The position numbers and the translations under genes were made by a program. Positions 57,479-58,045 of a stretch of 64,000 nt of DNA are shown here, piece by piece (position 1 is the stretch's first letter; each line of letters begins with the position of its first letter). The notes under the pieces were generated by a model. It was not told the origin of the DNA, searched no databases, and worked only from the letters and a program-made list of their open reading frames with translations. The DNA lies in the NCBI RefSeq assembly GCF_054482525.1, contig NZ_CM137006.1; one strand, given 5' to 3'.

Positions 57479-58045
57479 TTGGCGCAAAATGGCGGCATTT
57501 ACTCATTTCTCCATCGGAGCATCTTACGCGCTATAACCACTCTCGTTTTTTCCTATTCCCATGCAGATGAAGCACTACGCAATGAACTTGAGAAGCATCT
57601 CTCCCCGCTGAAGCGAACCGGGAAGATCACAACATGGCACGATCGCCGCATCGTTCCTGGTCAGGAGTTCGAACGTCAGATCGACCACTATTTTTCGCAA
57701 GCAGATATCATCCTGATCCTGATCCTGATCCTGATCAGCAGTGACTTTATTGCTTCTGATTACTGCTATCAGGTAGAGATGAAAAACGCACTGGAACGGC
57801 ATGACCGGGGCGAGGCGGTGGTCATTCCGGTAATTTTAAGAAACTGTGCATGGCATCAGTTATAATTCGGCAGCATTATGGCGGCGACTATCGACGGTAA
57901 ACCCATCACTAAGTTTGCCACCCACGATGAAGGCTACGTTCAGGTCGTCGAGGCCGTCTCGCGTGCCATTGCCCGGATGGAAGCCAAAAAACTACAGCAA
58001 ACCATACATATCCCTTCACCGGCTCCGGCGAATCCGATCTTTTAG
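57479..58045 (+). pseudogene. TIR-domain protein gene, apparently disrupted (no in-frame ATG start, internal in-frame TAA, expanded hexanucleotide repeat)
   Basis: Frame from 57479 (TTG, no SD) encodes ...LVFSYSHADEALRNELEKHLSPLKRTGKITTWHDRRIVPGQEFERQIDHYFSQADIILILILILISSDFIASDYCYQVEMKNALERHDRGEAVVIPVILRNCAWHQL, then TAA at 57863-57865, then in-frame FGSIMAATIDGKPITKFATHDEGYVQVVEAVSRAIARMEAK... to a stop at 58043-58045; an ATG at 57489 (MAAFTHF...) is in another frame. Confidence 0.6.
57710..57736. repeat. hexanucleotide microsatellite (ATCCTG)4 containing four tandem GATC (Dam) sites
   Basis: atcctgatcctgatcctgatcctgatc inside the TIR reading frame, encoding ILILILI; GATC at 57715, 57721, 57727, 57733. 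Confidence 0.9.

Follow-up and report, generated by a model that had tools for sequence, protein, structure and literature searches.

A four-copy ATCCTG repeat with apparently incidental Dam sites, a probable neutral indel in a decaying ThsB-like TIR gene of Escherichia coli

The question raised by this locus is whether a short in-frame hexanucleotide repeat, and the four Dam methylation sites inside it, do anything for the TIR-domain gene in which they lie, or whether they merely accompany its decay. The repeat occupies positions 57710-57736 (+) of the window, by which we mean the whole 64-kb stretch of DNA that was analysed, and reads directly as four copies of ATCCTG followed by ATC, confirming the initial annotation, which had reported (ATCCTG)4 with four GATC sites 6 bp apart. 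Tandem Repeats Finder described it as period 6, 4.5 copies and 100% matches (score 54), and it is the sole repeat in the 64 kb with a 4-8 bp unit and at least three perfect copies. Because only about 1e-8 runs of 21 matches in a row at lag 6 are arithmetically expected per 64 kb of random sequence, the tract is beyond chance. An assembly artefact was ruled out as its source: the tract and the flanking lesions recur in strain PCN033, in dog isolate 19KM1776 and in an independent metagenome contig. A 75-aa ORF crossing the repeat on the opposite strand (57575-57802) is without support and was rejected as spurious.

The tract shares its reading frame with an ORF containing a TIR domain (Pfam TIR_2, E=1.5e-11), where it encodes I-L-I-L-I-L-I-L-I; aligned with the intact allele, (ATCCTG)2+ATC, the window has 12 more bases and so four additional residues, ILIL. 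Since the unit equals two codons, slippage preserves the frame, as had been proposed at the outset. The placement of the tract inside a TIR coding frame was likewise correct for the ORF itself, but two stops within that frame and a frameshifting deletion, all downstream, break it; this had been missed (Table 1).

Table 1. Coordinates of the Dam sites, of the TIR gene with its landmarks and lesions, and of the adjoining genes in the window
Feature	Position	Strand	Basis or remark
Type I restriction-modification subunit M (hsdM, one of two tandem)	55736-57235	-	Neighbour
ThsB-like TIR pseudogene	57533-58296	+	RefSeq PPECC33_RS29570 in PCN033, 'frameshifted; internal stop'
ATA at the homologs' ATG start position	57533-57535	+	Comparison of alleles
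Four GATC (Dam) sites, starts 57715, 57721, 57727, 57733	57715-57736		Exactly 6 bp spacing
GAG codon equivalent to Glu78	57776-57778	+	Alignment, AlphaFold model
In-frame TAA (GAA>TAA, Glu107)	57863-57865	+	Every other allele has GAA; nonsense confined to the four-copy lineage
In-frame TAG (CAG>TAG, Gln167)	58043-58045	+	Other alleles have CAG; second nonsense codon, likewise confined to the four-copy lineage
Junction of the 232-bp deletion, TA microhomology	58088-58089	+	Alignment to the intact allele
Mrr-like restriction endonuclease, PADLOC candidate family PDC-S02	58481-59470	-	Neighbour
MkoC helicase-PLD nuclease (Mokosh type II), apparently intact	59598-63113	-	PADLOC E=0, 1692 bits

What the tract would encode in a working gene can be read from the intact allele. 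The intact 327-aa protein matched the PADLOC profile PDLC00420 (ThsB1|ThsB) from residue 2 to residue 324 (E=1.6e-153) and Pfam TIR_2 with E=4.5e-14; no NCBIfam model matched either the TIR protein or the Mrr-like neighbour. A large protein collection contained 5330 relatives of it, the best 120 of which served as the homolog set (63-95% identity, ~321-329 aa); the genera among these best 120 are Salmonella, Serratia, Yersinia, Klebsiella, Pantoea and others. In E. coli the gene represents a family of ~327-aa standalone ThsB-like proteins that is widespread among enterobacteria and whose predicted architecture is an N-terminal TIR domain followed by a C-terminal domain without assigned function. 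The AlphaFold model of the intact protein (mean pLDDT 74) comprises the N-terminal TIR domain, a disordered linker and a well-predicted C-terminal alpha/beta domain, and a Foldseek search against the PDB confirmed the TIR fold by matching the TIR domains of RPS4, MAL and AbTir. The protein has the two hallmarks of TIR-domain proteins, the flavodoxin-like betaA-betaE fold and the conserved glutamate of helix alphaC. Secondary structure elements in the model are betaA 3-9, betaB 34-40, betaC 59-63, alphaC 72-87 and betaD 92-96, and (ATCCTG)2+ATC encodes I60-L61-I62-L63-I64, the core of betaC (IILILIS). Glu78, in the QVEM motif of helix alphaC, lies 14 residues past the repeat-encoded strand and is invariant in 68 sequences; by analogy with what is generally known of other TIR NADases, it is presumed to be the catalytic glutamate.

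The length of this strand is strictly kept. The segment from AD to SSDF is seven residues long in 121/121 sequences (the best 120 of the 5330 homologs plus the query), with the consensus IILLLIS, so that the two-unit length is ancestral and strictly conserved. Only the E. coli allele among the same 121 sequences reads IILILIS, and it is this single L-to-I change that makes the DNA a perfect 2.5-unit repeat. The proposal that the repeat lengthens an Ile-Leu stretch in a conserved TIR strand was therefore well founded: the strand is betaC, and its length does not vary across the best 120 homologs and the query.

The intact allele is like Thoeris ThsB in its end-to-end match to the ThsB1|ThsB profile, in its TIR fold and in its invariant alphaC glutamate, so that it qualifies as a ThsB-type TIR protein, of which the window carries a pseudogene copy. 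However, no ThsA-type effector is annotated in the window or beside the intact alleles; the neighbours are instead a type I restriction-modification system, the Mrr-like nuclease on the opposite strand and MkoC, and the more distant E. coli homologs adjoin different genes. Because the homologs have varied neighbours, the TIR gene seems to stand alone within a defence island. Standalone TIRs were explicitly excluded from a 2025 systematic Thoeris study, and the E. coli TIR survey of Wang et al. (2024; PMC11350192) describes 64 clusters, 32 of them tested, and the ThsB-like family may have been included there. The genes for MkoC and the Mrr-like nuclease directly adjoin the dead TIR gene. On the other side, two different hsdM genes (54234-55739 and 55736-57235, both on the minus strand) stand in tandem with a 4 bp overlap and form one type I restriction-modification operon with hsdS and hsdR. 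Beyond hsdR, at ~46272-49909 (+), an AAA-family ATPase gene is followed by an N-6 DNA methylase gene, a pair that may be another defence module of the island.

The lesions of the TIR gene were read by aligning the window allele with that of strain AR_0077, whose intact 327-aa gene was the reference. RefSeq labels the gene a pseudogene, 'frameshifted; internal stop', in both PCN033 and 19KM1776. Besides the two nonsense codons, the 232-bp deletion, which is common to 41 of the 100 E. coli genomes carrying the allele group, shifts the frame and takes away the C-terminal domain. At the start position, 110/120 homologs have ATG followed by xxLVF, whereas 11 of the 12 E. coli alleles examined, alleles annotated as intact included, have ATA, the sole ATG being in a metagenome allele. 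An in-frame TTG lies at 57479, 54 nt upstream of the ATA, and the expression of the E. coli TIR gene may depend on it. A further independent route of inactivation is found in E. coli E300010, in which the IS66-family element ISEc23 (at ~3570 of contig L008) breaks the C-terminal domain of a two-unit allele. Because of the two nonsense codons, the 232-bp frameshifting deletion and the missing ATG start, a change in repeat length is inconsequential in the lineage of the window; the suggestion that copy-number slippage would change protein length has no consequence there, the gene being a pseudogene. A second kind of length variant occurs in an E. coli protein of 342 aa (WP_241161472.1), otherwise full length, which lacks three residues (GSI) after 'HQLEF' because 9 bp have been deleted in frame from the loop that follows betaD.

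Copy number was counted with short queries against 5426 complete E. coli genomes, 100 of which carry the allele group. Two units were found in 90/100, one unit in 8/100 and four units in 2/100, and alleles of three or five units in 0/100; the unit numbers were confirmed by direct alignment of the alleles. Distant homologs at 86% identity (8 further genomes) have the imperfect tract ATCCTGTTGCTAATT and those at 78% identity (52 further genomes) the imperfect tract ATCCTGTTGTTGATT, both encoding IILLLIS at the two-unit length. The copy number does differ among homologous alleles, which supports the initial annotation on this point, and the comparison across homologs that it recommended returned one, two or four units in E. 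coli alleles rather than a uniform four.

The distribution of these variants follows the state of the gene. The 232-bp segment is kept in 59/100 genomes, and 59/59 of these have two units; all ten length-variant genomes, eight with one unit and two with four, are on the deleted background. Both four-unit genomes have the deletion together with the two stops. Seven of the one-unit genomes are 100% identical over 913 bp and combine the deletion with CAA>TAA at codon 56, just 5' of the repeat; their hosts are humans, a wood-wren and a mountain pygmy possum, with no host recorded for one strain. The eighth, BS15R-A, has the deletion and four private amino-acid changes, and a third one-unit haplotype from the protein collection (14 contigs) bears the frameshifted tail of the deletion at its end. 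A metagenome scan with a variable-gap pattern returned six contigs, one with four units and all lesions of the window and five with two units; as the scan required exact flanks, the left-flank SNP of the 2021CK-type allele would have hidden that allele from it. Another 31 genomes have the deleted allele with two units and no further lesion, and in these a shortened TIR protein may still be made and kept under constraint. The truncated product of the EcPF15 allele is 216 aa long. A Fisher test of length variants against the deleted background gave P=6e-5 at the level of genomes, but this value is overstated and invalid as a test because the genomes are clonally related rather than independent, and since there are few independent events, perhaps three or four, the association carries limited statistical weight. 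Combined with the invariant seven-residue strand of the homologs, it still suggests that strand length is under purifying selection where the gene works and that indels are tolerated once it is broken.

Whether the tract is an active repeat can be judged from its behaviour among very close relatives. The window falls within the PCN033 lineage of E. coli: a 1-kb region round the repeat is 100% identical in PCN033 and 19KM1776. Any two of the window, PCN033, 19KM1776 and metagenome contig L009 are separated by 1-5 SNPs per 14.7 kb, and all four sources have four units. A 72-bp tandem array elsewhere in the window (12225-12492) has one unit more than in PCN033, so that this VNTR changed while the hexamer tract stayed at four units in all four sources. 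With the seven identical one-unit alleles from different hosts taken into account as well, the tract does not behave as a hypermutable repeat. Compared with the PCN033 record NZ_CP006632.1, the window has 9 SNPs outside repeats over 51.7 kb; at positions 48374 and 59640 it differs from PCN033, 19KM1776 and L009 alike. The array at 12225-12492 lies in the gene of an EspX6-like pentapeptide-repeat protein (10192-12591, +; 799-aa ORF), which also has repeats at 11679-11830 and 11828-11913; its 9-bp unit AACATCTGC occurs 16.9 times, giving (Ala-Thr-Ser)n, and is followed by the 18/36-bp and 24/72-bp arrays. A 451-bp query from this region was at least 80% covered in 71 of 634 matches to E. coli genomes, with spans of 325-451 bp, mostly two-piece or partial; such match spans, which are not copy counts, suggest that the EspX6-like repeat region is length-polymorphic.

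The reading offered first, in which the simple-sequence repeat is active and, by keeping the frame, adjusts the length of a functional TIR protein, has in its favour the two-codon unit and the existence of one-, two- and four-unit alleles, and it invites comparison with the contingency loci of Haemophilus, Neisseria and Campylobacter, which the tract resembles as a short in-frame tandem repeat whose unit number varies between strains, here in a defence-island gene. The known contingency tracts, however, are longer than 2-4.5 copies, switch at high frequency within a clone and lie in intact genes, whereas the tract here has 2 to 4.5 units, far below those loci, is fixed within lineages and stands in a pseudogene. 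In the window it has 4.5 perfect copies of a 6-bp unit; close isolates do not differ in copy number (four sources with four units, seven identical alleles with one, 90 genomes with two), and no intact gene is altered by the length change, given the two in-frame stops, the frameshifting deletion and the lack of an ATG. The unvarying two units in every genome that keeps the 232-bp segment and the invariant seven-residue strand of the best 120 homologs and the query also speak against it. Because copy number is fixed within lineages, the tract does not behave as an active simple-sequence repeat, and the idea that it tunes a working protein is almost certainly wrong.

The Dam sites call for the same scrutiny. 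Clusters of several GATC within a few tens of bases are found at oriC and dnaA, where SeqA sequestration acts, and at pap and agn43, which are Dam GATC-cluster switches of known function; the repeat resembles them in this respect, but its sites are intragenic, unconserved, 6 bp rather than ~10 bp apart and without an associated regulator site. The claim of an unusual local density stands insofar as the repeat is the densest GATC cluster of the window (4 sites in 22 bp, compared with 3 within 30 bp at four other places), but GATC is not enriched overall, with 241 observed against 247 expected from base composition. The cluster exists because each CTG|ATC unit junction spells GATC, so that the number of sites per allele follows the number of units, one, two or four, with two in the ancestral allele and one in the contracted allele. 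The hemimethylated GATC pairs favoured by SeqA are those that share a helix face, at a distance of ~10 or 20 bp (PMC2691817; PMC2912659). Alternate sites of the repeat, 12 bp apart, come near the ~10 bp same-face spacing (PMC2912659), and transient binding of SeqA at the cluster after replication is conceivable; on the other hand, adjacent sites at 6 bp would be on roughly opposite faces, so that only the alternate sites would suit SeqA, if the reasoning of PMC2691817 is extended to this spacing. A functional Dam-dependent element, be it a SeqA patch, an epigenetic switch or an entry point for mismatch repair, would be expected to have conserved sites in a regulatory region, whereas here one, two or four sites lie inside a dead ORF and not in a promoter, and an Rfam scan of 56500-59000 at E<=1 gave no match. 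Such an element is very improbable. The earlier suggestion that the sites could affect mismatch repair or protein binding is unsupported, given their origin as a by-product of the junctions, the two ancestral sites and the opposite-face spacing, and the four sites appear to be incidental, an automatic result of the unit sequence.

The account that we favour, and consider highly likely, is that the tract is a neutral product of replication slippage or of a 12-bp tandem duplication in a decaying gene; both the slippage and the neutrality are what we infer from the alleles. The L-to-I change in the E. coli allele group would have turned betaC from IILLLIS into IILILIS and the DNA into a perfect (ATCCTG)2.5, a weak substrate for slipped-strand mispairing. 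The 232-bp frameshifting deletion would then have removed the C-terminal domain in some alleles, and on this deleted background the tract may now and then contract to one unit or, as in the lineage of the window, expand to four. The copy in the window would also have gained its two nonsense codons, before or after the expansion, and the length change would have been fixed neutrally in a lineage with an already inactive TIR gene. Because of these nonsense codons the expanded repeat encodes nothing used. Given the lack of any three-unit allele, one tandem duplication of 12 bp is at least as probable as two slips of a unit each, and the single step is, if anything, slightly favoured. The tract is like slipped-strand indels in bacterial pseudogenes in its perfect units, its whole-unit differences between alleles and the restriction of its variants to relaxed selection; with no essential difference from them, it belongs to that category.

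Selection rather than neutrality might have been at work if the remaining TIR domain became costly or toxic after loss of the C-terminal, presumably sensor or regulatory, domain, so that nonsense mutations and changes in betaC length were favoured as a knock-out. Nonsense makes up 3/4 of the private coding substitutions in the four-unit and the 2021CK-type one-unit lineages, against 3.1-3.6% expected, one-unit alleles occur on three different haplotype backgrounds, and the IS66 insertion disrupts another allele. As proof of selection, however, the nonsense excess was downgraded for ascertainment, as lineages picked by repeat number may include an inactivating hit by construction; with this bias allowed for, one extra nonsense in two substitutions remains (P ~0.07). 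Moreover, the 31 genomes with the truncated two-unit allele keep it without any further lesion, and with the start codon already ATA, expression may be low anyway. A selected knock-out is accordingly quite unlikely in our estimation. It is unlikely, too, that the post-deletion TIR is a liability that E. coli lineages have repeatedly and independently silenced, both by nonsense and by length changes of the buried strand through the slippery hexamer; were this true, the repeat would be a mutational shortcut to disarm an auto-toxic immune enzyme.

Under the neutral account, the variation at the locus appears to be ordinary, with indels that arise at a low rate in a defence gene undergoing decay, and the repeat copies and the Dam sites appear to be without effect. 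The indel matters little in itself; what is gained is the removal of a false lead, as the repeat does not act as a switch of protein length and the clustering of Dam sites appears incidental. Of modest value is the record of how a standalone ThsB-like TIR defence gene decayed step by step in an E. coli defence-gene cluster, through loss of the ATG, the 232-bp deletion, nonsense mutations, an IS insertion and strand-length indels. For the family, as represented by the best 120 of the 5330 homologs and the query, it means that the length of the betaC strand is strictly conserved wherever the gene is intact.
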